From: a virus
Lineage: Duplodnaviria; Caudoviricetes
Direction: 5' to 3' (one strand)
DNA: 34,917 nucleotides
IMG/VR virus record: IMGVR_UViG_3300032260_000011
Location: 1-34,917 of that record
Part shown: piece after piece, positions 4,901-34,917 of the stretch
Position numbering within the stretch: the stretch's first letter is position 1
Layout of the letters: every line of letters begins with the position of its first letter
The notes under the pieces: generated by a model
Database searches by the model: none
Told to the model about the DNA's origin: nothing
The model's input: only the letters and a program-made list of their open reading frames with translations
Translations under genes and position numbers: made by a program

Positions 4901-5773
4901 TTGTCAGCCAACGAAGCACGCAGAGACCTAAGCGAGAAAATCAGGCTAGAATTACAGCTAGCTAGTGAGATTCGCTCGATTCATCGTCAGATCGTGCGTC
5001 AGACAATTAAAGAATATAGTGCAACAGGCAGGCCATTTGATGCAAAAAACCTTTCTGATGAGCTTACAAGTACACTAAAAGACCACTATGACCATGTTGG
5101 CATGTCATTTGACAATCAAATAACTGACATATTACCAAGTGACATTGAGGCCACAGAGGAAGAAAGAGCGGCAATTACAGCTGCCCTGACTACATTCTTT
5201 GCCTTAAGAGCATTAGAGCAATCAGAGATCATTACAGCCACAAATCAGAAGGATATAGATGATTCTATTGATCAGTCCATAATGATGAGCCAAGAGGCAG
5301 AGGAGCCACAGACAAGGATAGATCTGGCATTTGTCGCTGGTGCTATACTTAGTCGAAAGCTTAATGGAAGAGTTTCAGGTATCGCGACTCTAGAAACTCA
5401 GTCTGTAGCAGAAGCCGCGAAAGCTACAGAGGCGCAGATACTTACGTTTCAGCCTCCTAGTGTTACAGGTGGAACGCCTAGAGAAGCTCCAGTAACAAAA
5501 GAATGGGTTACAGTGGGTGATGAGAGAGTAAGAACTGCGCATATCGGAGCAGATAGCCAAGTGCAAACACTTAATCAACCCTTTGTAGTGGGTGGTCAGT
5601 TGCTTAGATGGCCAGGAGATACAAGTTTAGGGGCTACGCCTGGTAATGTCATTAATTGTAGGTGTAGTTCAGTCGTAAACGCACAAAATGTGTTCGCTAT
5701 CCGCAGGCAAAGAGGTGAGTTGCCTATGATAGATCAAACGGCAAGTGAGCAGCTGCTTACAAGTCTTGGATAA
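4901..5773 (+). CDS. minor head/head morphogenesis protein (MuF/SPP1 gp7-like)
   Basis: KEWVTVGDERVRTAH...PF.VGG..LRWPGD...NVINCRC. Confidence 0.9.
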   Translation: MSANEARRDLSEKIRLELQLASEIRSIHRQIVRQTIKEYSATGRPFDAKNLSDELTSTLKDHYDHVGMSFDNQITDILPSDIEATEEERAAITAALTTFFALRALEQSEIITATNQKDIDDSIDQSIMMSQEAEEPQTRIDLAFVAGAILSRKLNGRVSGIATLETQSVAEAAKATEAQILTFQPPSVTGGTPREAPVTKEWVTVGDERVRTAHIGADSQVQTLNQPFVVGGQLLRWPGDTSLGATPGNVINCRCSSVVNAQNVFAIRRQRGELPMIDQTASEQLLTSLG

Positions 5774-5796
5774 ACTTAGTAAACGAGGTAATAAAG

Positions 5797-6246
5797 ATGG
5801 CACGTAGATATTCAATTGATGGGCAGGATACCAATACTGCTTCAACTTCAATCCTTGGCCTGACTAGTGCGGCTACTGTGCGCCCTATGATTTATGATCT
5901 GATTCTGGGGAGTGATGCAGCACCTGCAGACAATGCGGCTGAGTACGTTTTGCAGCGCTATACTGCTGCAGGTACTGCAACCGCAGTAACGCCACAAGCT
6001 CTTGATCCTGGTGATCCTTCTGCTTTGGCTTCTGCTGGTGAGGCTCATACCGTTGAACCCACCTATACCGCAAATGCAATTATGCTTCAGTTTGCTACCA
6101 ATCAGCGTGCAACTTTCCGTTGGGTAGCTGCTCCTGGTGGTGAGATAAAACTCCCAGCTACTGCTGCTAATGGTGTTGGAATAAAGGTTATTGGCATTGC
6201 TGGATCAGCTGTCAATACTAATGTCTGCATGCACTTTGAAGAGTAA
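5797..6246 (+). CDS. hypothetical, probably virion-associated protein
   Basis: GAGG RBS; Ala/Thr-rich beta-type composition; lies in head module. Confidence 0.7.
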   Translation: MARRYSIDGQDTNTASTSILGLTSAATVRPMIYDLILGSDAAPADNAAEYVLQRYTAAGTATAVTPQALDPGDPSALASAGEAHTVEPTYTANAIMLQFATNQRATFRWVAAPGGEIKLPATAANGVGIKVIGIAGSAVNTNVCMHFEE

Positions 6247-6491
6247 TGTTTCTTCCTGAGCGAAGCCCTAAAGGGGTTATCCTCCAGGATGGCAAAGAGA
6301 TTGCTGACACATTGCAATGTGTTCACTGCGGTGGGCATTTTGTGAGTGTGAAAGGCTCTGGTATGCGTAGGGGTTGGTGCAGACATTGCAATGGGATTAC
6401 TTGTGGATCTCAAGCTTGTGATGTATGTGTGCCTTTAGAGAAGCAGCTTGAGCAGATAGAGAAAATAGAGCGGGAGTTAATTAGGCTGTGA
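6246..6491 (+). CDS. Cys-rich putative zinc-binding protein
   Basis: CVHC, CRHC, C...CDVC motifs; C-terminal coiled coil. Confidence 0.65.
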   Translation: MFLPERSPKGVILQDGKEIADTLQCVHCGGHFVSVKGSGMRRGWCRHCNGITCGSQACDVCVPLEKQLEQIEKIERELIRL

Positions 6492-7234
6492 GATTATGGC
6501 AGTATCCTAGTTTAACTGAGCCTGTAAGTCAGGAAGGCGAAAACATCACTTTAGATAAGTGGTGGCAGGAAACTGCGCGCCCTGTTTTCGATAGAAGGCT
6601 GCCTACTGCGTTAATGTTCACTGCTGCTGTATTGGTGGAGTTAGTATCACCTCCAGCACTGGCAGATATTGGGTGGTTGCCACCAACAGAGCAGCCTGTA
6701 AGGATAGAAGCAAGACAAATTCCTACAGGCCTGTCTTTTGTTGACATTGTTTCTGAAGTTCTCCCAGAAATAGCATGGACTCAGCCAACTTCTCAGCCAA
6801 AGATAGATGTTAGTAGGGAGCAGTTTACTTACCCGAGTCTTTCGTTTGTTCAGGTTATTGCCCCACCGGTATCATTAGATCAGTGGGGGCAGCCAACCAA
6901 CCAGCCGAGGATAGATATAGAGCGTAGTCAGTACGCCTATCCTGGGTTATCGTTGGTCGAAATTGTTGTACCTCAGGTATTTGTAGAGCTTGATAAGTGG
7001 TATAGACCACTACAAGAGCCGTTCTTTATACCTGATAATACCCAGTATCTTAGCCCTGTTGCACCTTTTGCGCCTATTACTGAAGTAATACCCGTATCTT
7101 TGCCTGGTAAATTATGTGGCGATGTATCAATCGGGGTAAAATTAGGTGGTGATATCACAATGAGCGTGAAAATAGCTGGTGATGTGACCTTAAATCCCGC
7201 AATTGACGGGACAATTACCATAAGAAGCTGCTGA
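6488..7234 (+). CDS. Pro-rich internal-repeat protein
   Basis: About 5 repeats of the form (L/I)-x-x-W-x-x-P-x-x-Q/E-P (LDKWWQ, IGWLPPTEQP, IAWTQPTSQP, LDQWGQPTNQP, LDKWYRPLQEP). Confidence 0.7.
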   Translation: MRLWQYPSLTEPVSQEGENITLDKWWQETARPVFDRRLPTALMFTAAVLVELVSPPALADIGWLPPTEQPVRIEARQIPTGLSFVDIVSEVLPEIAWTQPTSQPKIDVSREQFTYPSLSFVQVIAPPVSLDQWGQPTNQPRIDIERSQYAYPGLSLVEIVVPQVFVELDKWYRPLQEPFFIPDNTQYLSPVAPFAPITEVIPVSLPGKLCGDVSIGVKLGGDITMSVKIAGDVTLNPAIDGTITIRSC

Positions 7235-7551
7235 TGGCGAGTCTACTTGTAAATAGTGATAACGTAATCCAATTAACTGAGTTGAAGAATCTTGTTGATG
7301 GCGCGTATTTAAACGGTGCTACCGTAACAGTGACTATCGTTGATTCTGATGGTGTTGACGTTACAGGCGAGACATGGCCGTTATCAATGCCATATGTGGC
7401 GAGTTCAGACGGTGTTTACAGGGCGAACCTTGCAGACACGATATCTTTTGTCGCCGAGTGTAAATACACCGCTACAGTAATTGCAGATGCAGGCGCAGAC
7501 GGTAAGCGAGAATGGGTTACAGATGTAATTGCTAGGGTCAGTGTTGGTTAA
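7234..7551 (+). CDS. hypothetical Ig-like/beta-sandwich protein
   Basis: ATVTVTIVD...DGVYRA...YTATV pattern; TGATG coupling. Confidence 0.65.
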   Translation: MASLLVNSDNVIQLTELKNLVDGAYLNGATVTVTIVDSDGVDVTGETWPLSMPYVASSDGVYRANLADTISFVAECKYTATVIADAGADGKREWVTDVIARVSVG

Positions 7552-7562
7552 CGGGGAATAAA

Positions 7563-8804
7563 ATGGCACATATTCACACATTACCAGACGGACAAAAAAC
7601 AGGCACAGAGATAATTGATCCTGATGACAATGAATTACACTGGCATTTAGTCAGCGAAGATAAAACATCATCCAGTCCATTTGGGTTGGAACATACGCAT
7701 ATATTAAATGGCGTGGAAACATCAGGTCCAATTCAAGAAAAGGCGCAAGACATGAGTATTGAAACTAAGCAGGCTGGCGGTAATATCCTAGAAGCTAAGC
7801 AGATCAGCAGGAACGGTGAGCCTGTAGGGATTCTTAAGGGCTACATAGCCACATGGGATCTAGACAGGGGGCTTGATAGATTTGTTCGCGGTGCATTTGC
7901 TGAATCACTGGAGCGCCACAGAAAAGATAATCGACCTATTAGGTTAAAAGACCATCATGGTCGTACTGTGGGCGGATTTCCCATTGAGACTGTTGTGGAA
8001 AATGATATCGGCTTACTTGGTATTGGGGAGGTAAATCTAGACGTTCAGCAGGGGCGTGAGCTTATGTCACTTGCAAAACAGGGGGTGCTTTCTGACTTCT
8101 CTGTAGGATTCACCTCAATTGAAGACTCCCTGGATAATGGAATCCGGGTTATTCATAAGGCTGAGATATGGGAGGGATCTATTGTCGATGAGCCGATGAA
8201 CCCGAGCGCAATTGTGACTGAAGTTAAAGCTGCCGTTCCGTTTCAAGATTTACCTTTGGCTTCCAAAGATCGAGCATGGACTGCAGACGCGGCAATTTCT
8301 AGGGTTCGCGAGTTCACAGATTCAACAGATGAGCCTGGTTCAAAGTATCGTCGTGCTTTTGTATGGTTCGATAGTGCTGATGCCAGTAATTTCGGAGCCT
8401 ACAAGTTACCTATTGCTGATGTAATCGACGGGAGACTGACGGCTGTGCCAAGGGGTGTATTTGCCGCTGCCGCTGCTGTACAAGGCGCTAGAGGCGGTGT
8501 AGATGTACCAGATGCAGACCGCGCTGGTGTGATACGGCACTTGGAGAGATATTATGCAAAGATGGGGCTAGATAGTCCGTTTGGCGATGAAAAACAATTC
8601 TTTGTTGCTGATGATGTTAAGGAATGGACAGAGCGAGATATAGAGAAATTCCTGAAAAAAACAGGATGCATGTCTAAATCAGCCGCCAAGCTTCTATCAG
8701 ATCGGCTCGAAGAGAAGGAAGAGCAAGAAGAGACACTAGAATTAGATGCAATGCGTGAGTTAGTTGCAGAAATGAAGGCTTTTAAGTCTGAGATGGCTAA
8801 TTAA
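7563..8804 (+). CDS. prohead maturation protease (HK97 family) with N-terminal HxH region and extra C-terminal domain
   Basis: KGYIATWDLDRGLD...GAF, LKDHH, FSVGF, IWEGSIVDEPMNP. Confidence 0.9.
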   Translation: MAHIHTLPDGQKTGTEIIDPDDNELHWHLVSEDKTSSSPFGLEHTHILNGVETSGPIQEKAQDMSIETKQAGGNILEAKQISRNGEPVGILKGYIATWDLDRGLDRFVRGAFAESLERHRKDNRPIRLKDHHGRTVGGFPIETVVENDIGLLGIGEVNLDVQQGRELMSLAKQGVLSDFSVGFTSIEDSLDNGIRVIHKAEIWEGSIVDEPMNPSAIVTEVKAAVPFQDLPLASKDRAWTADAAISRVREFTDSTDEPGSKYRRAFVWFDSADASNFGAYKLPIADVIDGRLTAVPRGVFAAAAAVQGARGGVDVPDADRAGVIRHLERYYAKMGLDSPFGDEKQFFVADDVKEWTERDIEKFLKKTGCMSKSAAKLLSDRLEEKEEQEETLELDAMRELVAEMKAFKSEMAN

Positions 8805-8809
8805 TGTTA

Positions 8810-8845
8810 AAGATTATGCAGGTCTTACGAGGCCTGCATAATCTT
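8810..8845. terminator. hairpin between convergent genes, probable bidirectional terminator
   Basis: AAGATTATGCAGGTCT-TACG-AGGCCTGCATAATCTT, 16-bp stem with one G-T pair. Confidence 0.75.
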
Positions 8846-8858
8846 ATGCCATAAGTAT

Positions 8859-9083
8859 TTATGGCAACGGCTTTTCAGCAGCGCCATTTTTACCTCCACC
8901 GCCGTCCCCACCACCGGGAAAGCACTGAATTACTGTTGACCCACTACCCGCACCTATTTTTGCGGAGGCAAAACCGGATGGAAAGCTCACTTTGCAGTCC
9001 GCATCTCCTTGGACAATCTCTTTTTTAGTTACAATCCAAGGTTTTTCTTTTGTAAAAAGGTACTTCAACACATATAAATTCAT
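8859..9083 (-). CDS. hypothetical protein
   Basis: AGGAG RBS upstream of ATG; ends at the hairpin. Confidence 0.5.
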   Translation of the reverse strand: MNLYVLKYLFTKEKPWIVTKKEIVQGDADCKVSFPSGFASAKIGAGSGSTVIQCFPGGGDGGGGKNGAAEKPLP

Positions 9084-9092
9084 ATTTATCTC

Positions 9093-9269
9093 CTATAGCT
9101 TCCTAAGCCGCTTCAACTGCTTATTATCAGGCTCTATCTCTACAGCAAGATCTAGCAGTTTTACACGAGTTTCTGGCATTACCGATACCCGAAAATCAAC
9201 AAATCCATCCTTGCTCCTATCCTTCCTGAGCCTGCGCATCGATTCTGCTTCTTTAGTTGGTTTTGTCAT
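9093..9269 (-). CDS. 58-aa basic protein, possible ribbon-helix-helix DNA-binding protein (not in ORF track)
   Basis: Manual translation MTKPTKEAESMRRLRKDRSKDGFVDFRVSVMPETRVKLLDLAVEIEPDNKQLKRLRKL*. Confidence 0.5.
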   Translation of the reverse strand: MTKPTKEAESMRRLRKDRSKDGFVDFRVSVMPETRVKLLDLAVEIEPDNKQLKRLRKL

Positions 9270-9272
9270 AAT

Positions 9273-9335
9273 TGCAGCCTATCATTCCACCCATTCGGAG
9301 TTATACAGCATAGTTATGTCTAGCCCCTGTTATAT
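9273..9335 (+). repeat. attI-like array head site, copy 1
   Basis: 50/60 ungapped identity to 29466-29525; ends in GTCTAGC-CCCT-GTTATAT with upstream direct GTTA cores. Confidence 0.65.
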
Positions 9336-9337
9336 GG

Positions 9338-9853
9338 CTAAGACACCTTTCTGTGGGCCTCAAGATGGCAAAACAGGTTTTCTATTTCTCTGTGCCATTC
9401 ATCTTTTATATTCATAGCTGGTTTTGTTTTTTCGTAAAATTCTCTTGGGTTGTCACCAAACTTATAGCTCATGGCAATCCAATCAATCACCATGTGGACG
9501 ATGTCATTATAAGTTCCCACCGTCTCATGGTGATGAGGGTTGCTTGCCTTATGGTTCTCCCATGCCTCATCGAATCCACTGTTTTTCTTGTCCTCTGGGG
9601 TTACTGGATAGAAGTTGTCCCTATACTGCACAAACTCATCTTTGCTTAGTTTTGAGAGATCATGCCTCTCAACCTCAGCTCTGATTGTGTGCCATGCGAA
9701 ATCATCGCCTACCCACCACTCTTTCCCATCACACGCTAGCGATAGCTCATCAAATGCTTTGGCTACGTTTTGAACATGCTCCTCTACATAGTCCAAGTAT
9801 TGCCGGGTTGCATCTATGTAATCCTGTACCTGCATTCTGTCTATAAAAGCCAT
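9338..9853 (-). CDS. cassette 1 ORF: HD-like metal-binding protein (DUF5662-like)
   Basis: EH...HDLSK...AWENHKASNPHHHE...MVIDW; GGAG RBS. Confidence 0.7.
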   Translation of the reverse strand: MAFIDRMQVQDYIDATRQYLDYVEEHVQNVAKAFDELSLACDGKEWWVGDDFAWHTIRAEVERHDLSKLSKDEFVQYRDNFYPVTPEDKKNSGFDEAWENHKASNPHHHETVGTYNDIVHMVIDWIAMSYKFGDNPREFYEKTKPAMNIKDEWHREIENLFCHLEAHRKVS

Positions 9854-9876
9854 AATCAAATTATCTCCATGTAGCC

Positions 9877-9963
9877 ATATAACAAAGCAAATCCACCGGA
9901 GTGCTTCGTCATTAGTTGTTTAAATTGGCACCGAGCGCACCCGGTGATTATGCAACGTTATGC
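9877..9963 (+). repeat. attC-like site 1
   Basis: R'' ATATAAC, L'' AATCCACC, L' GGTGATT, R' GTTATGC; imperfect palindrome with extra C in L''. Confidence 0.8.
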
Positions 9964-10167
9964 AGTAAACAATCCGGCATAGTTAGCCCAGAAATATATC
10001 TGGTATGCTAATGCCGGTGTGGAAATGTAGGTATTCGTGAATCCGTGATTCCATATGTGCAGTATCGGCACTGGGGTTTTCATCTCATTGCCAGCGCAAA
10101 TTGAGATAAACTTAAAAAAGAAGTGCAGCGAAATAGTTGCGCTCAAAACAAAAAGTAATGTTTGCAT
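9958..10167 (-). CDS. cassette 2 ORF: small membrane protein
   Basis: Two hydrophobic segments; ATG lies in R'' of attC2 and TAA in R' of attC1. Confidence 0.7.
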   Translation of the reverse strand: MQTLLFVLSATISLHFFFKFISICAGNEMKTPVPILHIWNHGFTNTYISTPALAYQIYFWANYAGLFTA

Positions 10168-10265
10168 AACAATTAGCTCCAGCGGACAGTCAAACGCCGT
10201 CCGGGTTTGTGGTTAATTTATGGCTCAGTGTTGGCGTTTGTCTGCCGCTGAGCATGGCGTTAGAT
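10164..10265 (+). repeat. attC-like site 2
   Basis: R'' GCATAAC, L'' GCTCCAGC then GGAC, inner stem CAAACGCC/GGCGTTTG, L' GCTGAGC, R' GTTAGAT. Confidence 0.88.
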
Positions 10266-10457
10266 TGCATCAAACTCTTCTTCTAGCTTTTGTAGTTCAG
10301 CAGCCAGCCATTCTCGCTTTTCACCCAAATGGCGCTTAAACATGTCATCCGGCACGTTCATCCAATTTCTTTCATCACGCAGCCCATCAAGCGTGCTTTT
10401 GTAATCATCCATTCTGCTCTTTAATAATTTTGCCTTTTTAAACAATTCATTTTTCAT
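10260..10457 (-). CDS. cassette 3 ORF: small coiled-coil protein
   Basis: GGAGG RBS; stop in R' of attC2. Confidence 0.75.
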   Translation of the reverse strand: MKNELFKKAKLLKSRMDDYKSTLDGLRDERNWMNVPDDMFKRHLGEKREWLAAELQKLEEEFDAI

Positions 10458-10480
10458 TTCGTGCCTCCGTTATGGGCGCA

Positions 10481-10570
10481 ATCTAACAACGGCAATCAAG
10501 CGGTGACGTGTTTGTCATCCGCACATTTAATCAAAATGTCTGCACACGCAGCTTATTGCCCACATTAGGT
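10481..10570 (+). repeat. attC-like site 3 (core mutated to ATTAGGT)
   Basis: R'' ATCTAAC, L'' AATCAAGC, L' GCTTATT, R' ATTAGGT. Confidence 0.78.
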
Positions 10571-10876
10571 GTAGTCCCGCATCATGCTCTCAGTAATGAA
10601 ATAGGCGTACTGCTGCGGCCTATTTTCGGCAACCCATTTCAAGAGTTGTTCCAAATCAACTTCTGTGCAGTTATATCCGGCTTCGTTTTTTGCATGTATT
10701 ACCTCTCTACCAAAACCTTCCCACTCTTCTTCTGGCTCGTGGTGGGCGTATTTTCCAGTAGTCTTTCTAATTGACACTTCCATTTCTTCTGCGTATTCGG
10801 TAACTCCACACATAACAATCGGCTCAACCTGACCCGCTGCTTCGGTAGTTGAGTTTTGTCTCTGTTCATCTTTCAT
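10565..10876 (-). CDS. cassette 4 ORF: hypothetical protein, probable start inside attC4 loop
   Basis: AGGGGA RBS before ATG at 10876 (ORF track extends to 10903); stop in R' of attC3. Confidence 0.65.
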   Translation of the reverse strand: MKDEQRQNSTTEAAGQVEPIVMCGVTEYAEEMEVSIRKTTGKYAHHEPEEEWEGFGREVIHAKNEAGYNCTEVDLEQLLKWVAENRPQQYAYFITESMMRDYT

Positions 10877-10930
10877 CTTGGGTGTCCCCTGTGTTCTATT
10901 CACGCGGGCAAGTTAGCCTAAGCGTTATAA
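10810..10930 (+). repeat. attC-like site 4
   Basis: R'' ACATAAC, L'' GCTCAACC then TGAC, stem CCGC/GCGG, L' AGTTAGC, R' GTTATAA. Confidence 0.8.
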
Positions 10931-10933
10931 TGC

Positions 10934-10961
10934 ACTATAACATATAACGCGTTAACATCAA
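10934..10961 (-). promoter_or_regulatory. putative sigma70 promoter reading leftward into array 1
   Basis: TTGATG-16 nt-TATAGT with extended -10 TG on the minus strand. Confidence 0.5.
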
Positions 10962-11002
10962 GTGGTTTACCTATCCCCAACAGTTTGAATATCCCTAATA
11001 TC

Positions 11003-11031
11003 TTGACATTCTTATCAAAGACGACCAAAAT
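11003..11031 (+). promoter_or_regulatory. possible promoter for capsid gene
   Basis: TTGACA-17 nt-CAAAAT (weak -10). Confidence 0.3.
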
Positions 11032-11135
11032 TACTATTGATACCGAATGCTGGCCGGTGAGATGCCGGAAAGCATAGGCTAGTGGGATGCTGGACATCGG
11101 AAACGTGAAAGTTAACCCGACAACAGGAGGACATT

Positions 11136-12317
11136 ATGTCCGATCCCACTATGGCCGATGTAATGAGCGGCGTAAAAGAACTCCGCGAAGAGTTTGAAAA
11201 GAAATCACCCGATTTCGAGAAAATCAACAAGATTGAAGCTGATCTTGAGAAGCATGAAGAGAAAAACCAGGAGCTACTTGCCGAAGTAAAGCAGAGCGAG
11301 AAGCGTGAGGAAGAGATGAAAGAGCGCATGGATGTGCTAGAAACTGAACTAGCCCGTTCAGGCGCTGGTGAAGGCAAGAATTACAAAGAGTCTGAAGAGT
11401 ACAAAGCTCTTGATCTATTTGTAAAGCAAGGCGCGTATGCCATTACCCAAGAACAGAAAGCAATTCTCCGTACTGATAGTGATGTACAGGGCGGTTTCTT
11501 GGTGCCTGTTGAGATGGATAACGCCATTACAAAGAAGATCACCGAGATTTCAAATATTCGGTCTATTGCTCGAGTTCGCACCATTGGTGCTAAATCCCTA
11601 GAAGTACCGGTACGCAACACTATTCCTGCTGCAACCTATGAAGGCGAAGCAGAAGAGGGTGGCGAAGATACCAGCACATACCAGAATGAAACCCTAACGG
11701 CTTTCCGCCAGACCGTCACCATTCCTATTACTCAGGATATGTTGATGGATGCGGCATTCAATATGGAATCCGAGATCATGGGCGATGGTGGTGAATCTTT
11801 TGCTCAGGGCGAAGGTGCTGCATTTGTCGTAGGCACTGGGTTTAAACAGCCTGAAGGCTTTACCGTTGATTCGCGCACTGTAGCAGCTGCACGCACATCT
11901 GCATCATCAGGCACCGTTGGGTTTGATGACATTATGAACCTGACTGGTGATCTGAAGACTGGTTACAATCCTGTTTACGTGTTCAATCGCACCACTCTAG
12001 CCTTTCTGCGCACCCTCAAGGGCGGTGATGGGCATCCGTTGTGGCAGCCAGGAATGAATGGCGTAGTGATGAACACCATCAACGGCTTCCCTTACCTAAT
12101 CGCCAATGATATGCCTGATATCGCAAGTACTACCATTCCGGTAGCATTTGGCGACTTCGCACGTGGTTACACCATTATTGACCGTACCGGAATGGCCGTG
12201 ATTCGTGATGAGGTAACTCAGAAGAAGAAGGCAATCGTAGAATTCACCTTGCAGCGTTGGAATACTGGTCAGGTTACTCTGCCAGAAGCCATCAAACTGC
12301 TAAAAGTTAAAGCTTAA
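11136..12317 (+). CDS. major capsid protein (HK97 fold, N-terminal coiled-coil delta domain)
   Basis: GGFLVP, LKGGDGHPLWQPG, VAFGDFARGYTIIDR, EAIKLLKV; AGGAGG RBS. Confidence 0.95.
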   Translation: MSDPTMADVMSGVKELREEFEKKSPDFEKINKIEADLEKHEEKNQELLAEVKQSEKREEEMKERMDVLETELARSGAGEGKNYKESEEYKALDLFVKQGAYAITQEQKAILRTDSDVQGGFLVPVEMDNAITKKITEISNIRSIARVRTIGAKSLEVPVRNTIPAATYEGEAEEGGEDTSTYQNETLTAFRQTVTIPITQDMLMDAAFNMESEIMGDGGESFAQGEGAAFVVGTGFKQPEGFTVDSRTVAAARTSASSGTVGFDDIMNLTGDLKTGYNPVYVFNRTTLAFLRTLKGGDGHPLWQPGMNGVVMNTINGFPYLIANDMPDIASTTIPVAFGDFARGYTIIDRTGMAVIRDEVTQKKKAIVEFTLQRWNTGQVTLPEAIKLLKVKA

Positions 12318-29465: not shown

Positions 29466-29528
29466 TGCAGCCTATCATCCAACCCGTTAGGATTTAGGCT
29501 GCATAGTTATGCCTAGCCCTTGTTAGGT
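29466..29528 (+). repeat. attI-like array head site, copy 2 (includes TGCAGCCTA/TAGGCTGCA hairpin)
   Basis: 50/60 identity to 9273-9332; ends in GCCTAGC-CCTT-GTTAGGT. Confidence 0.65.
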
Positions 29529-29684
29529 GTCTAGTGCTGCCTTGCACCCAAGCAGCACTATTCGAAACAGGAGCGGCTTGTGCTTTGCCCAATTACCGAG
29601 GGTTTGCAAGCTCTGCCCCGTCATCTCTGAAACCTGGGAGAGGCTTTTAAGCCCATCCGCTTTGGCTTGTTCCGCTGCTGTCAT
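29523..29684 (-). CDS. cassette 5 ORF b: small HTH-like DNA-binding protein
   Basis: GLKSLSQVSEMTGQSLQTLGNW helix-turn-helix pattern; ATGA coupling to upstream ORF; stop in GTTA core. Confidence 0.7.
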   Translation of the reverse strand: MTAAEQAKADGLKSLSQVSEMTGQSLQTLGNWAKHKPLLFRIVLLGCKAALDT

Positions 29685-29848
29685 GTAACGTCCCTCATGT
29701 CCCAAACGGTTTCCTTCATATTTGTAACCCAGCAGGCAACAACATCAGTCCATTGCATTTTATTTTCTGCGAATTCAACAGCGGCTGCTTGACTCGGGAA
29801 AAATTTGGTTTCTTCGGTGTTCTCGGTAATCGTGGTTACATTAAACAT
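29681..29848 (-). CDS. cassette 5 ORF a: 55-aa hypothetical protein (not in ORF track)
   Basis: GGAG RBS; MFNVTTITENTEETKFFPSQAAAVEFAENKMQWTDVVACWVTNMKETVWDMRDVT*. Confidence 0.65.
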   Translation of the reverse strand: MFNVTTITENTEETKFFPSQAAAVEFAENKMQWTDVVACWVTNMKETVWDMRDVT

Positions 29849-29886
29849 TGACTTGCTCCGTTGGTGTTTGTCTTAACTTGTAAACA

Positions 29887-29933
29887 ATTATAGCAAACTA
29901 TTTGAAGGATGCAAGTATTATTTCAAACTATTT
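29887..29933 (-). promoter_or_regulatory. cassette-internal sigma70 promoter with repeated operator-like sites
   Basis: TTGCAT-16 nt-TATAAT with extended -10 TG; CAAACTATTT at 29894-29903 and 29924-29933. Confidence 0.65.
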
Positions 29934-29943
29934 TCAAAAAGAC

Positions 29944-30030
29944 ACCTAACAAAACAAATCAAGCAGACGGGTTAAAGCGCGGCGCTTTTAATAGGCATGG
30001 GTGCGCCGCAGCTTATTTGTAATGTTAGGC
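29944..30030 (+). repeat. attC-like site 5
   Basis: R'' ACCTAAC, L'' AATCAAGC then AGAC, L' GCTTATT, R' GTTAGGC. Confidence 0.85.
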
Positions 30031-30297
30031 TGCACGCCCATCGCGTATCTTTTCAGCATCTTCCTGGCTAAGTCCGTAGCCTATACACTCCATTGGATCA
30101 CGCTCCCGAACTGTAAGATATTCTGGAAGCTCATCAGGGAGGTTTTCACAATTCCAGAACCACCAGCAGTCTCCCATGCTTTGAGGCGTAGCATGCTGGT
30201 AGGTTATTCCTAGGTGCTTCATTACCTCTTGCGGGTGCTTACATCCGGTGTCATTAGATGTAGCTGAGGCAAATAAACAGTACGTTAAGTCTTTCAT
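30025..30297 (-). CDS. cassette 6 ORF: hypothetical protein (start 30297 preferred over 30333)
   Basis: AGGA RBS before ATG AAA GAC; HPQ..MKHLGITYQHATPQSMGDCWWFWNC; stop in R' of attC5. Confidence 0.7.
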   Translation of the reverse strand: MKDLTYCLFASATSNDTGCKHPQEVMKHLGITYQHATPQSMGDCWWFWNCENLPDELPEYLTVRERDPMECIGYGLSQEDAEKIRDGRAA

Positions 30298-30324
30298 ATC
30301 AAATCCTATGGTAAATTTTGTGAA

Positions 30325-30395
30325 GCCTAACAACGCGCTTCAACTCTGACACAAGCTTCGTTCCTCGCTTGTGCAGGTTAAGCGCCACGTTAGGC
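30325..30395 (+). repeat. attC-like site 6
   Basis: R'' GCCTAAC, L'' CTTCAACT then CTGAC, stem ACAAGC/GCTTGT, L' GGTTAAG, R' GTTAGGC; 71 bp. Confidence 0.9.
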
Positions 30396-31025
30396 GCTTA
30401 CCTGATCGCCGATTTCGCAGCAAAGCACCCTATCAATCCTGTTCCAATACGGTGGCCTCAATCGTACTTGTCTGTATCCGCTATCATCTGGTAAGTAGCG
30501 CATAGCCAAGCCATCTTTTACCAATGAGCAATCATTATCAGTCTCGGGATATTCAATGCTGATTATTTTCCCATAGCCGTAAGCTCTTTTTTTGCCAAGA
30601 TGCGTAAGCTCACGCAGTAATCTTTTACACTCCTTGCGGTTGCCGCTTGCGTAAGCAACAAGCCGTTGAGTCAATAGCAGAGGCATTGGTGTATTCCAGT
30701 CTCGATATTGGCCGTTTTTGAGATTAGGCGCTCCGGTTGATATGTCTGCTTTTCCTTGCCTAAACCGCTTGCGCCAAAACTGCAAGTCCTCGCCTTGATG
30801 ATCATCTGGAAACAGCGCTGAAGCAGCCCATACCCACTTGTCACCGATGTTCTTGCGCAACAACGGTAAAGGTACGTGATCTGGCCTATCATCTCTACCA
30901 AGCCCTTTATTGGCTCCTACCCTTGGAGCTAATACCCAGCTTAATAATGCATCAAGATGTAGCGGCTCATTTGGATCAATGTAAACGCCTGAACCATCGA
31001 GATTAAAAATTACTTTAAAATGCAC
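30390..31025 (-). CDS. csf3: type IV CRISPR-associated Csf3 (Cas5 family)
   Basis: LHLDALL, PLPL, WAASAL, LTHLGKKRAYGYG glycine loop, RPPYW. Confidence 0.85.
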   Translation of the reverse strand: MHFKVIFNLDGSGVYIDPNEPLHLDALLSWVLAPRVGANKGLGRDDRPDHVPLPLLRKNIGDKWVWAASALFPDDHQGEDLQFWRKRFRQGKADISTGAPNLKNGQYRDWNTPMPLLLTQRLVAYASGNRKECKRLLRELTHLGKKRAYGYGKIISIEYPETDNDCSLVKDGLAMRYLPDDSGYRQVRLRPPYWNRIDRVLCCEIGDQVSA

Positions 31026-31774
31026 TAGACCACCTCCTTATCTCTAAGCCTCGAATATTGCCTTGGATAATACATTTTCATGTGCTCCATATCGCCATGA
31101 GTCATCCCGCCCAACGTAGGTAATGCCCACGACAATCGTATATCTTCTGGTTGGAAAAACCTGTTTTTGAAATAGCACGGATTGATCTCAATATCATTGA
31201 GAACCATGTAGGCAAACACATCATCAGCATTCCAAATGCTTAATGGATTACACCTCATTACTCCGCTTTTCAATTTATATGTATGGCCACGCTTACATAG
31301 GTTTAATTTTCTAGCCCTACTTTCAGCCATCCGTAACCCAAGCATTACACCATTACAGCCAAGCTCAAGCCTGGCATCATCAAGCACAGATATAAAGCCA
31401 TCTTTAGTGAGTGAGTGAGATTGAGCACATAGATTGTCATGCCCAATATTGCACTTACAAGCCGCCTCCCAAATTGAAAAATCAGGCTCTACAAGAATAT
31501 AATCAAACCCATTGTTTTGTTTTATTCGCTCAGCGTATTCTCTTTTTTCCGGCCAATCGCAATCATCAAACTGTATTAGTATTGGTAGGCTATCATCTAT
31601 TGATCTAGCAAGATGAGTCATTGCCGTTGAATCTTTGCCTGTTGACCACGACAAGCAGTAATCATTGTCTTCAATCGCGGATGTTATTATCTGCTTTGCT
31701 TTACTTAGCTTTGCTTTAAAAGAGTAGCTTTTGGCGTGGAGTTTCCACTCCATTATTTTCATCTCTTTTTTCAT
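31025..31774 (-). CDS. cysH: CysH/PAPS-reductase-like (PP-loop) protein of type IV-B locus
   Basis: SWSTGKDS PP-loop, GLRMAES..R, CNPLSIWNADDVFAY. Confidence 0.85.
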   Translation of the reverse strand: MKKEMKIMEWKLHAKSYSFKAKLSKAKQIITSAIEDNDYCLSWSTGKDSTAMTHLARSIDDSLPILIQFDDCDWPEKREYAERIKQNNGFDYILVEPDFSIWEAACKCNIGHDNLCAQSHSLTKDGFISVLDDARLELGCNGVMLGLRMAESRARKLNLCKRGHTYKLKSGVMRCNPLSIWNADDVFAYMVLNDIEINPCYFKNRFFQPEDIRLSWALPTLGGMTHGDMEHMKMYYPRQYSRLRDKEVV

Positions 31775-32435
31775 TTTTCAATTCCTCTTGGCTAGGCAGC
31801 AGATAGCATAAAAACGCATACAATGAGCTATTAACTTTAGGCTTTGCCCATGCTTCAAACTCCATCCATTTTGACATCCCAACTTTACGCATTACAAAAG
31901 ATGGGCAATCTAGTGATTCCATTACTAATCTCCCAATGCCTAGCCTTAGTGCAGCATTTAAAACGCCCCACCAGTCAAGCACAAGATGTTCATCTGAGCA
32001 GTCCACTACTCTAGATTCAAATAGCCATTTATTTTGTCCTGGTGAATAGTTGATAGGCGCTCTCAATGCGCCATGTTTTTTATAGCTGGTGGTTGCATAG
32101 CCACACCATGGAGGCTTGTTTCCACCAGATAAAACAGACTCTCTCACCTGCACTCTGCTTAGTTTTTTAAACTCAGACTGAATGCATATCCAAGATGACA
32201 TCCTTTCCCATTTGTATTTGAGTGCAATGTAAGCATCTATGCTCACCATATTGCTGCTTGGTGCATTTAGCGTTTCGCCATCACAAAATGATTTACCAAA
32301 TAGCTTTTTTCTTGGCAAGCATTGCCCGTGTAATCCAGTAATTGCGCACACGCCATCAACCAGATCACCATCATAAGCGGGACGATCAAGGTCATCTCTT
32401 GACAGCCCTGAAGCAATCAAATTAACCGGGTGCAT
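31716..32435 (-). CDS. csf1: type IV Csf1 (Cas8-like large subunit)
   Basis: N-terminal GVCAITG...SFCD..S..V, PPW....TTSYKKH; lies between csf2 and cysH. Confidence 0.65.
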   Translation of the reverse strand: MHPVNLIASGLSRDDLDRPAYDGDLVDGVCAITGLHGQCLPRKKLFGKSFCDGETLNAPSSNMVSIDAYIALKYKWERMSSWICIQSEFKKLSRVQVRESVLSGGNKPPWCGYATTSYKKHGALRAPINYSPGQNKWLFESRVVDCSDEHLVLDWWGVLNAALRLGIGRLVMESLDCPSFVMRKVGMSKWMEFEAWAKPKVNSSLYAFLCYLLPSQEELKNEKRDENNGVETPRQKLLF

Positions 32436-33729
32436 TGATAGCACCTATCTCAATTAAGTAATCAATGATTGCCTGCTTATTATCGCCAAGATAATCAATA
32501 TAGGGCTTAGGGTCTGGCGCATCTTTAATGTCAATCGCCACTTTGCCAAGCCCACGTCTGTTTTCAGCCCCGAGCATACCGCGCTGTTGAAGCAATGCTA
32601 ATCCGCATCCAAGAGCAGATAACTCCAACTCTGAAGCGTGATTGTCGTAGTCAATACCCCCTGTCAGTCTCGCCCCAGACTTGATGCACTCAGTATTGGC
32701 AATCATGCCAGCATGAGCATCATCATCGCCTTTGCCCTCATAATCATCGCGGCGCGTGAGAAATTCCCACTCCATAAGTTGAGCGGCTGGCACTTGACCG
32801 CTACCCCACTCATGGCAGCACGGCCTTAAATCACCAGCTTGCATGCGTCCTGGCAATATCCTATTGCCCATTGCTGCACCCAATAACGACAACGCTGGCA
32901 ACATATCTCTCAACCGGCGTAGGCCATCTGTACGTAAAGCTCCATGCTTGCCTAGCTCCTTGTTAAGTCCATCCATTACCTTGCTTTGCTCCTCAAGCAC
33001 TCCGCCAGCGTAGAGCGCGTGAAAGAACCAGATATTTACTGGTGGGTTATCCTTGCGCGGAACTAGGCCGATTGATCTAAGCAGATGATCTGCCAGCAGA
33101 TCGCGCAGTTGACCGCGAACAGCATTACCGGCATAAAAAGGCAGGCTTAATATACGGCCTGTTTCGGTTATCGCTTGTCGTCTCCTGAACAGCGTGGCGT
33201 TGCCTGCTTTGGAGTCTGACCCATGCGCCAACGGTGATAGTAATTCAGCATTGATGCTGATCTTGTAAGTAGGTTGAGCCGTAATTGTGCTGTCATCAAC
33301 GCCATCAGCATCAATAGTTATCGATTCTACGGCCTCAATATAATCATCATCTTTTCTGAGGCCAGCTATCATCGCCACAATTCGTGGGTGATCTCTTATC
33401 CAGTTTAATACTGCGCCTGCATCATCTGCATTAACTGCGGCCATAAATGCCGCAGTCCGCTTGCCACCAACATACTCAATAGAGGCATCAACCGCCTTGC
33501 ATAAATGCTCTATCGCATCTATTAAAGTTGGTTGTGCAAAGCTTTGTACAATGCGATCAGCAAAAAACCCTTCAAAATGGCGGTTTACCTTCATGCTGGT
33601 GGCTGATTTTATGCTTCGCACCATGTCCAATACGCCCTGCAATGTACTGACATCGCGCCTAACAATAGGGTCAACCAGACCGCCTACAGCGGCGCGGGTT
33701 TCATTTTTTTTGGCTTCGTTCGTCATCAT
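32422..33729 (-). CDS. csf2: type IV Csf2 (Cas7) with N-terminal helical, probably Cas11-like, domain
   Basis: LSPLAHG, GNATLFRR, LPFYAGNAVRGQLRD, LYAGG, LSLLG...ILPGR, FLTRRDD, LGAENRRGLG; about 150 extra N-terminal residues. Confidence 0.88.
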   Translation of the reverse strand: MMTNEAKKNETRAAVGGLVDPIVRRDVSTLQGVLDMVRSIKSATSMKVNRHFEGFFADRIVQSFAQPTLIDAIEHLCKAVDASIEYVGGKRTAAFMAAVNADDAGAVLNWIRDHPRIVAMIAGLRKDDDYIEAVESITIDADGVDDSTITAQPTYKISINAELLSPLAHGSDSKAGNATLFRRRQAITETGRILSLPFYAGNAVRGQLRDLLADHLLRSIGLVPRKDNPPVNIWFFHALYAGGVLEEQSKVMDGLNKELGKHGALRTDGLRRLRDMLPALSLLGAAMGNRILPGRMQAGDLRPCCHEWGSGQVPAAQLMEWEFLTRRDDYEGKGDDDAHAGMIANTECIKSGARLTGGIDYDNHASELELSALGCGLALLQQRGMLGAENRRGLGKVAIDIKDAPDPKPYIDYLGDNKQAIIDYLIEIGAINAPG

Positions 33730-33784
33730 CTTTTCTCCAAGTTCATCTGTGTTTTACGGCGGCGGGTTACCCTTATCGTTACAC
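33657..33784 (+). repeat. attC-like site 7 (closes the type IV-B cassette; overlaps csf2 start)
   Basis: R'' GCCTAAC, spacer AATAG, L'' GGTCAACC then AGAC, stem CCGCC/GGCGG, L' GGTTACC, R' GTTACAC; GCGCCTAAC is the exact reverse complement of cassette start GTTAGGCGC (30389-30397). Confidence 0.82.
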
Positions 33785-34402
33785 ATACGGCCTAACGCCA
33801 TGCTCTCTTAAAATGGCTCTGTATCGTTTGATCTCTGACTCTATATCATGCCATGTGGGGAACCGCTCCTTAAGGTCTGGATGCTTTCCGTGAAGCCACT
33901 CAAGATGCTTTTCCCCATACTTCCTAGCAATATATTCAGCATGTTCTTTTGGTTTGCCAGAGTCATACAGATTGCACTTGACACACTGTTTGCTGATGTT
34001 GGTAAGCTCAAATCTAACATCTGGTCTTGCCCCTCTTGTTAGATAATGGCCAGCATCAAACGCGCCATCAATGTCGTATTTTCCGCACGTACAGCACCCT
34101 TTGTCTTTATCTCTAACGTGCAATACATACTGGTTGACTAGAGTCTGTAGTCTTTTGTACCACTCGTTTCTTGTCATAACCTCTTTCTTTCTGAGTCTTG
34201 TTTCTGCTTTCTTGGCCTTTATTTTCTTCTCACGCTTGATATCAGCTTTTCGAATTGCTCTTTCTTTTGTTTTTGCTGCTAATTCTTTTCCATGCTGCAC
34301 TCCGTGATCCCAGTCACAATACCAAGCAAGATTGATTTGCACCATAGTATCTATGGCCTTCTTCACTTTGCAGTACTTGCAGGTTTTCTCCTTAGCTGGC
34401 AT
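33779..34402 (-). CDS. ninG: NinG/Rap-like recombination endonuclease (start 34402 preferred over 34450)
   Basis: CKYCK, RDKDKGCCTCG, DAGHYLTRGARP..RF...NI.KQC..CN. Confidence 0.88.
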   Translation of the reverse strand: MPAKEKTCKYCKVKKAIDTMVQINLAWYCDWDHGVQHGKELAAKTKERAIRKADIKREKKIKAKKAETRLRKKEVMTRNEWYKRLQTLVNQYVLHVRDKDKGCCTCGKYDIDGAFDAGHYLTRGARPDVRFELTNISKQCVKCNLYDSGKPKEHAEYIARKYGEKHLEWLHGKHPDLKERFPTWHDIESEIKRYRAILREHGVRPYV

Positions 34403-34811
34403 TTTGTGTCTCTTTACACGGCCACGGTACATATATGCCATGTTCAGCAAGCTTTACATTTAAAGCGTCATAAATATCAGCGTACTCGTGTGTTTCTGGT
34501 TTTGTAGTTGAGTCCTTACCGGTAATGGCTTTTTGTATTGGCCTCCAGATGTGATCCTTTACAAGTTTTTCGTTAAATGGGACAGGATGGCCTTCTTTTA
34601 TGAATACCCTAAAATCAAAACCAGCATCATTGAGAGCCGCTGCTAGCATACTGCAAAACAAGTGCAGCGAGGAATTTTGTGTTAGTGTGCGCTGCTTTCC
34701 TGTTTTTGATGTTACACGCAAATATTTATGCTTATCAAACTGAGTATCTAAGTAAGCCTTGTAAGCATCCAAGCTCTGGCGGCTATTAATAATCTGCTCA
34801 CCTTTGCTCAT
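34392..34811 (-). CDS. NinB-like protein (start 34811 preferred over 34862)
   Basis: KQRTLTQN..LH motif, STTK; adjacent to ninG. Confidence 0.6.
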   Translation of the reverse strand: MSKGEQIINSRQSLDAYKAYLDTQFDKHKYLRVTSKTGKQRTLTQNSSLHLFCSMLAAALNDAGFDFRVFIKEGHPVPFNEKLVKDHIWRPIQKAITGKDSTTKPETHEYADIYDALNVKLAEHGIYVPWPCKETQNAS

Positions 34812-34897
34812 CAGAACCCTCCAGCAGAACCAGAATACAAAACCAACAAGAAATATACACACCCAGCCTGTAGTGCCTTAGCTAAACAATGGGTCAT
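34811..34897 (-). CDS. possible 28-aa peptide
   Basis: AAGGAGG RBS before ATG at 34897; TGATG coupling to next gene. Confidence 0.3.
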   Translation of the reverse strand: MTHCLAKALQAGCVYFLLVLYSGSAGGF

Positions 34898-34917
34898 TGA
34901 TAATTCCTCCTTAATAC

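Follow-up and report, generated by a model that had tools for sequence, protein, structure and literature searches.

Can the attC-like sites that lie between the prohead protease gene and the major capsid gene of a tailed phage serve to exchange genes, and which enzyme would move them? The window analysed here is the whole of IMGVR_UViG_3300032260_000011, a linear virus record of 34,917 nucleotides (34.9 kb) that is 67% complete. Its plus strand carries a head and contractile-tail operon (terminase, portal, protease, capsid, sheath and baseplate), ninG and ninB lie at the minus-strand end of the record, and the GC skew changes sign at 9000–11000, where genes run on the minus strand. The nearest cultured terminase is only 50% identical to that of the record, and an Rfam search gave no hits. 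From the MuF-like gene to the protease gene (5797–7551) four ORFs without a family are located, a single one of which was matched, in one of 16 related loci. Both ends of the record (1–120 and 34809–34917) have matches in G001, a phage whose structural genes are different and in which the right-hand end match continues into an array of at least six attC sites.

Protease and capsid genes are normally adjacent, as the original prediction had assumed. The gap between them is 6–170 bp in 15 of the 16 related viral loci, a set that includes near-duplicates. L009 is the closest relative, its capsid being 83% identical; there the protease stop codon runs straight into the sequence found from about 11041 onward in the record. 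The full insert spans about 8805–11040, which is wider than 9273–10930, and consists of a hairpin, two small ORFs, a leader, four cassettes and divergent candidate promoters (Table 1). The hairpin had been thought to insulate the array; the inverted repeat is indeed present, but the terminator scan does not call it, and the insulating role was not borne out. Matches to the promoter consensus occur at chance level (6 in the region versus 5.0 in shuffles). In the right flank, at 10924–10960, nested inverted GTTATA/TATAAC boxes overlap the candidate leftward promoter. The exception among the 16 loci is L011, with a gap of 2867 bp caused by an unrelated 2.9-kb insert (5133–8000) at the same junction. 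This insert, in which no full-length attC hit was obtained, suggests that the protease-capsid junction is an insertion hotspot. One palindrome lacking the extra base is found in L011 near 7135–7250.

Table 1. Positions of the features of both arrays and of their flanks.
Feature	Position	Strand	Remarks
Prohead protease gene	7563–8804	+	PF04586, phrog_80; left flank
Inverted repeat	8810–8845		16-nt arms, 94%; putative terminator or operator
74-aa ORF	8859–9083	−	No family; GGAGA upstream; in the insert, outside the cassettes
58-aa ORF	9093–9269	−	No convincing family; ATG at the place expected for the R'' box if a decayed attC is assumed (read from the sequence)
Shared leader, upstream part	9273–9312	+	Five of the six arrays have it, L079 being the exception; a hairpin in the 29468 copy, decayed in this one
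Core entry site, GTTATGYCTARCCCYTG/TTA	9313–9332 (20 bp)	+	Crossover (slash) after G9329
Cassette 1	9330–9957	gene −	Gene 9338–9853; DUF5662, PF18907, E 7.5e-17; ends complementary over 12 nt
attC1	9877–9963 (87 bp)	top strand +	21.1 bits, E 0.012; fold z −2.1
Cassette 2	9958–10259	gene −	69-aa gene 9958–10167; ATG inside R'' box, stop in R' box
attC2	10164–10265 (102 bp)	top strand +	45.1 bits, E 3.9e-8; fold z −3.6
Cassette 3	10260–10564	gene −	65-aa gene 10260–10457; one homologue, 89%; no family
attC3	10481–10570 (90 bp)	top strand +	11.7 bits, not significant; fold z −3.2
Cassette 4	10565–10924	gene −	103-aa gene 10565–10876; start codon and first ~22 codons inside attC4
attC4	10810–10930 (121 bp)	top strand +	23.0 bits, E 0.004; fold z −1.2
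Candidate sigma-70 promoter, toward cargo genes	10934–10961	−	TTGATG-16-TATAGT; consensus match only
Candidate promoter, toward capsid gene	11003–11031	+	TTGACA-17-CAAAAT; consensus match only
Major capsid gene	11136–12317	+	PF05065, phrog_10; right flank
Second leader and entry site copy	29468–29525	+	Crossover after G29522
Second array, three attC-bounded units	29523–33784	top strand +, all genes −	One contig, even depth
Second-array attC sites	29944–30030, 30325–30395, 33657–33784	+	32.5, 17.2 and 25.1 bits
Type IV Cas operon as one cassette	30389–33663 (3.3 kb)	−	csf2, csf1, cysH-like, csf3; ends complementary over 9 nt

The four attC sites that part four single-gene units in the protease-capsid interval are confirmed. 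All of them were recovered by the scanner with the lengths first read from the sequence, the R''-L''-L'-R' boxes, the 5–6-nt spacers and the extra C in L''. The scanner found these four sites in 8801–11135, and 300 dinucleotide shuffles yielded none in 289 cases and one in 11, never more. A covariance model was home-made from attC of named bacterial-type integrons (7 of 21 reference sites for the first model, 15 bacterial integron attC sites hit for the second); it is not the one of IntegronFinder, and its E-values are rough. Two MAFFT attC alignments were discarded for misaligned right arms. This bacterial-only model ranks the scanner's sites first, with identical boundaries, and gives more than 20 bits to three of the four within 1.1 kb; attC3 falls below significance. 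Nine of the 16 related head loci (89.8 kb) were searched with it without any hit, and neither L009 nor L011 gave a full-length one. When applied to published phage clusters of attC sites without intI (CALINs), it found 3 sites in TJE1 and 4 in MW202573, equal to the counts of Qi et al. (PMC9892861), and weak hits only in P12002L.

In bottom-strand folding each site forms one stem that pairs R''/R' and L''/L', although the 121-bp attC4 is not significant on folding energy alone. With 37 phage sites aligned to the model, 94% of cells are paired and 115 two-sided changes are counted against 35 in shuffles, in an alignment that is fitted to the structure. The characteristic anatomy of attC (imperfect palindrome, extrahelical base, unpaired spacer, folding bottom strand) is present, with an exception at GTT in attC3. 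This site reads ATTAGGT, i.e. ATT instead of GTT, and has lost the crossover G; it is predicted to be weak or dead. An attC pattern gave 3 hits in the genome collection, none at an integron-like array, and 7 loci in viral sequences, among them L061, L063 and L067 without arrays. BLAST returned short matches only, both for the array against cultured phages (2% of the query covered) and for one attC against plasmids (31% of the query covered).

As claimed, complementarity at the unit ends extends over 12, 8 and 10 nt; the ends of cassette 4 agree at just 5 of 7 positions. Over the adjacent pairs of sites, the boxes at the two ends of a cassette match at 7 of 7 positions in 23 of 31 cases, compared with 4 of 44 within a site, which is expected of units inserted from circles. 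The product of cassette 1 belongs to a viral family with an HD-like fold (DUF5662; atlas clusters 89–100% viral) and is presumably a metal-dependent phosphohydrolase. The cassette 2 protein has three homologues (58–61% identity over 93–97%) and no family. For the cassette 4 protein there are 16 homologues, again without a family; they share a core that begins with Val-Met, and their N-terminal tails are variable or absent. In cassette 4 this Val-Met start of the core is encoded by the reversed R'' box. An atlas search with cassette 4 gave no usable hit. The cargo consists of ordinary phage accessory genes. Homologues of cassettes 4 and 1 that lie on other viral contigs are flanked by attC in 0 of 17 and 0 of 3 loci, respectively.

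The cargo genes are inverted relative to those of bacterial integrons, which the original prediction did not mention, any more than the entry site or the second array. All four genes of the head array run against the attC top strand. Three of them have their stop codon in the reversed R' box, and those of cassettes 2 and 4 start inside their own attC. Among 44 sites in five phage records, 42 have an adjacent ORF and 37 of these 42 ORFs are antisense by a longest-ORF rule; 15 ORFs start within the attC site, and four of the five exceptions contain an antisense ORF within the cassette. In the complete phage G006 the sites switch strand with two divergent operons (16 and 6 sites). Replication strand as the cause of this polarity is disfavoured, since polarity in G006 follows transcription, as it also does at two sites that lie between the predicted initiator gene and the divergence point. 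The integron rule is turned round by this layout: with the genes directed toward the entry site, a newly inserted cassette would lie at a distance from the promoter.

Upstream of cassette 1 lies a leader of 60 nt, of which further copies occur at 29468 in the record and in L019, L021 and L022; in L079 its 20-nt core only is found. Identity between the copies stops at G/TTA (the slash marks the crossover). The six copies of the entry site lead to six different first cassettes, joined exactly at G/TT, in arrays whose records all fall under two shared name prefixes and are probably not independent samples. In each of the six arrays the first box matches the far end of its own cassette, over 12, 11, 8, 8, 10 and 13 nt. 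In the assembly graph of run X1 the leader is a hub of depth 91 versus 23, with a seventh continuation. From these junctions we infer an attI-like role for the core entry site. All six copies have 4 bp between the L-like and R boxes, compared with 5 in attI1 and in Shewanella attI; to judge by the junctions, this non-canonical site still behaves like an entry point. The upstream part of the leader may descend from an attC that has decayed, and the core may be a scar left by a deletion and since turned hotspot. The entry site had no hits in the genome collection. In viral sequences, the first leader pattern gave none, the second 2 (one of them real) and the third 12, of which 11 are without the remaining leader.

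L019 and L022 have the same tail gene, leader and right flank and differ in all cassettes between, the second array of our record being a third filling. Cassette content had been expected to vary among relatives. It does so behind the shared entry site and in the second array, whereas no relative with an array at the head-operon locus was found. Variation at the head-operon locus itself is thus seen only indirectly, from cassette 3, of which a 96%-identical copy occurs behind a different attC end in run X2 from a second study (one 244-nt contig, depth 2.6). The bacterial attC model and the exact crossover points at which content varies support the proposed gene-shuffling platform, with cassettes apparently exchanged at G/TT. 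Contigs with an empty site or with excision of a single cassette were absent among those listed. A joint of 9332 to 10830 was considered as an excision product and rejected, because one side is 22 nt long and L022-type attC matches there.

The second array brings the attC sites found by the model in the record to seven. Its last unit contains a whole Cas operon that starts inside its attC. The Cas genes are below the NCBIfam cut-offs and give strong PADLOC hits; csf2 has an N-terminal extension of about 150 aa. By gene set, the operon seems to be IV-B-like. The first cassette of this array (29523–29940) contains a pair of small ORFs, of which one is weakly HTH-like; an AT-rich stretch in the cassette is possibly its own promoter. 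The right flank at 33778–33841 is common to three phages (the record, L019 and L022), has a depth of 98 in X1 and opens with an R'-like box, 5 bp and an R''-like box.

The locus is an array of attC-bounded single-gene cassettes with inverted genes, inserted between protease and capsid gene of this tailed phage, and on balance we find it probable that it is loaded and rearranged by an IntI-type integrase of the host in trans. The integrase would bind the folded bottom strand of the attC of a circular cassette and insert the cassette at the double-stranded entry site, at G9329/TT; cassettes would leave by attC x attC excision. Transcription would run leftward from the candidate promoter at 10961–10934, just past the last attC, so that each attC would head its gene and sometimes supply the ribosome-binding site, the start codon and the first codons. 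A separate promoter would drive the capsid gene. The second array would work likewise and would have taken up the type IV Cas operon as a whole.

PF00589 has no matches in the record or in the nine records G000–G008, of which only G006 is complete, and PF00239 has none in the five records tested, G006 included. The 38.7-kb G006 carries 22 attC model hits in both early operons, 17 of them at E < 0.05. Since no recombinase was found in our 67%-complete record or in complete G006 with its 22 sites, a host IntI-type enzyme acting in trans is likely and is the simplest reading. Of six phage attC sites tested, IntI1 recombines five (PMC9892861); it also accepts diverse attC sites (PMC8618304) and inserts at double-stranded sites other than attI (10.1101/2022.09.11.507474). 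The host-IntI reading is weakened by the said co-evolution of attI sites and integrases, with poor cross-recombination (PMC8946536), by the fact that neither a host nor a host integrase was found and by the absence of the entry site from the genome collection. In Virus Rctr41k (L074 4680–5678) an IntI-like gene with 40% identity to a Vibrio IntIA stands among small genes of the same orientation, and the scanner detected no attC in 11.6 kb of that locus. Among the cassette cargo of G006 (L068, L069) are a C5 DNA methylase and an AAA protein.

The same cassette mechanics could be served by a short Xer-type tyrosine recombinase, encoded in the missing third of the phage genome or by a co-infecting phage. 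The 4-bp L-R spacing of the entry site would fit such an enzyme, as it implies a 6-bp overlap, which is of the Xer/dif type. We consider this unlikely in view of the PF00589 searches in G000–G008 (only G006 being complete) and of the scores that the sites reach under a model made from IntI substrates. Even less likely in our opinion is a relic that was built once by an integrase, is now frozen and moves by RecT/Red-type homologous recombination at the leader, the flanks or similar attC arms. G006 does encode RecT and a YqaJ exonuclease, leader and right flank are shared homology blocks of 60–65 nt, attC3 is mutated and the upstream part of the leader can be read as a decayed attC. Homologous exchange, however, could not create six junctions at one G/TT that each match their own distal box, the attC sequences are too divergent for homology although their pairing is conserved, and most cassette ends (23 of 31) still match fully.

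Finally, the sites might be chance attC-like intergenic hairpins or translation-control elements, or the array might have been misassembled at this position. The overlap of sites with gene starts and the branching of the assembly graph at the leader would agree with this. We regard it as highly improbable, because shuffles never gave more than one site and the model support comes with a clean negative control. Moreover, all four cassettes and the capsid gene lie on a single 20-kb contig of depth 23.5, compared with 22.4 on the protease side, which is joined via the repeated leader, and the gene order of the record agrees with that of the 16 relatives.

How does the preferred reading, cassettes moved by a host integrase, relate to known systems? 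With class 1 and sedentary chromosomal integrons the locus shares the attC anatomy, the G/TT crossover, single-gene units with complementary ends and one entry point. In contrast to them it has no intI, a 4-bp-spaced entry site, genes that point toward the entry site and viral cargo families. With at least two attC within a few kb, the array is a CALIN; it lacks three features of an integron (intI, a canonical attI and the gene polarity) while working like one. CALINs had been described to us as known from chromosomes and plasmids and as rare in phages, which understates prior work: Qi et al. (2023) list 17 CALINs in 10,705 genomes and report phage attC active with IntI1 (PMC9892861). Those phage CALINs are likewise attC clusters without intI in tailed phages. 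In MW202573 (L081 2069–3738) the four model sites are antisense to the annotated genes as here, a point on which the text of that paper does not remark. The same text, figures aside, describes no inverted genes, no starts inside attC, no reused phage entry site and no Cas cargo, unlike our record. TJE1, in contrast, has canonical polarity at 3 of 3 sites, and the CALIN of M16-3 is led by attI and carries the attI of its own host (PMC9892861).

At attG sites and in SALINs, IntI inserts cassettes at double-stranded non-attI sites, a proposed origin of small CALINs and of attI (10.1101/2022.09.11.507474). In our arrays the GWT core is present and the CRGM motif (+6 to +9), read by eye, is matched at 2 of 4 and 3 of 4 positions in the two right flanks; unlike attG, a single site is kept here in different phages and at different loci, and is reused. 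The insert also resembles phage morons, non-essential inserted genes (PMC13492144), in that it brings additional genes into a morphogenesis operon; its candidate promoters match at chance level and its hairpin is not called as a terminator. As in that class, it lies between genes that adjoin in relatives; unlike morons, it is a multi-cassette array for site-specific recombination. The comparison draws on the moron layout of the HK97 head operon. A literature search that covered few subscription papers found no description of the inverted layout, of cassette genesis from phage genes, of links between morons and attC or of type IV cassettes. What the locus appears to add are an entry site filled in six ways, a locus filled in three, and cargo in the form of a Cas operon.

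A wider proposal, which we put forward tentatively and hold to be possible, is that these phages operate their own integrons, without an integrase. Ordinary genes of the phage, and even an entire type IV Cas operon, would stand behind attC sites that supply their starts, a portable entry site would suit any operon, and the IntI of the host would be exploited. Cassettes are regarded as bacterial and rare in phages; here seven sites occur in one record and 22 in a complete 38.7-kb phage, with the genes reversed. To our knowledge, how genes become integron cassettes is an open question. The cargo relatives without flanking attC (0 of 20 loci) provide before-and-after pairs for a gene becoming a cassette, and the 20-bp entry site is a small and directly testable substrate. 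Through such a site, phage mosaicism could arise in a site-specific way and type IV Cas operons that lack an array could spread. If the proposal is true, the early regions of phages would make new integron cassettes and form a gene pool that trades with bacterial integrons.
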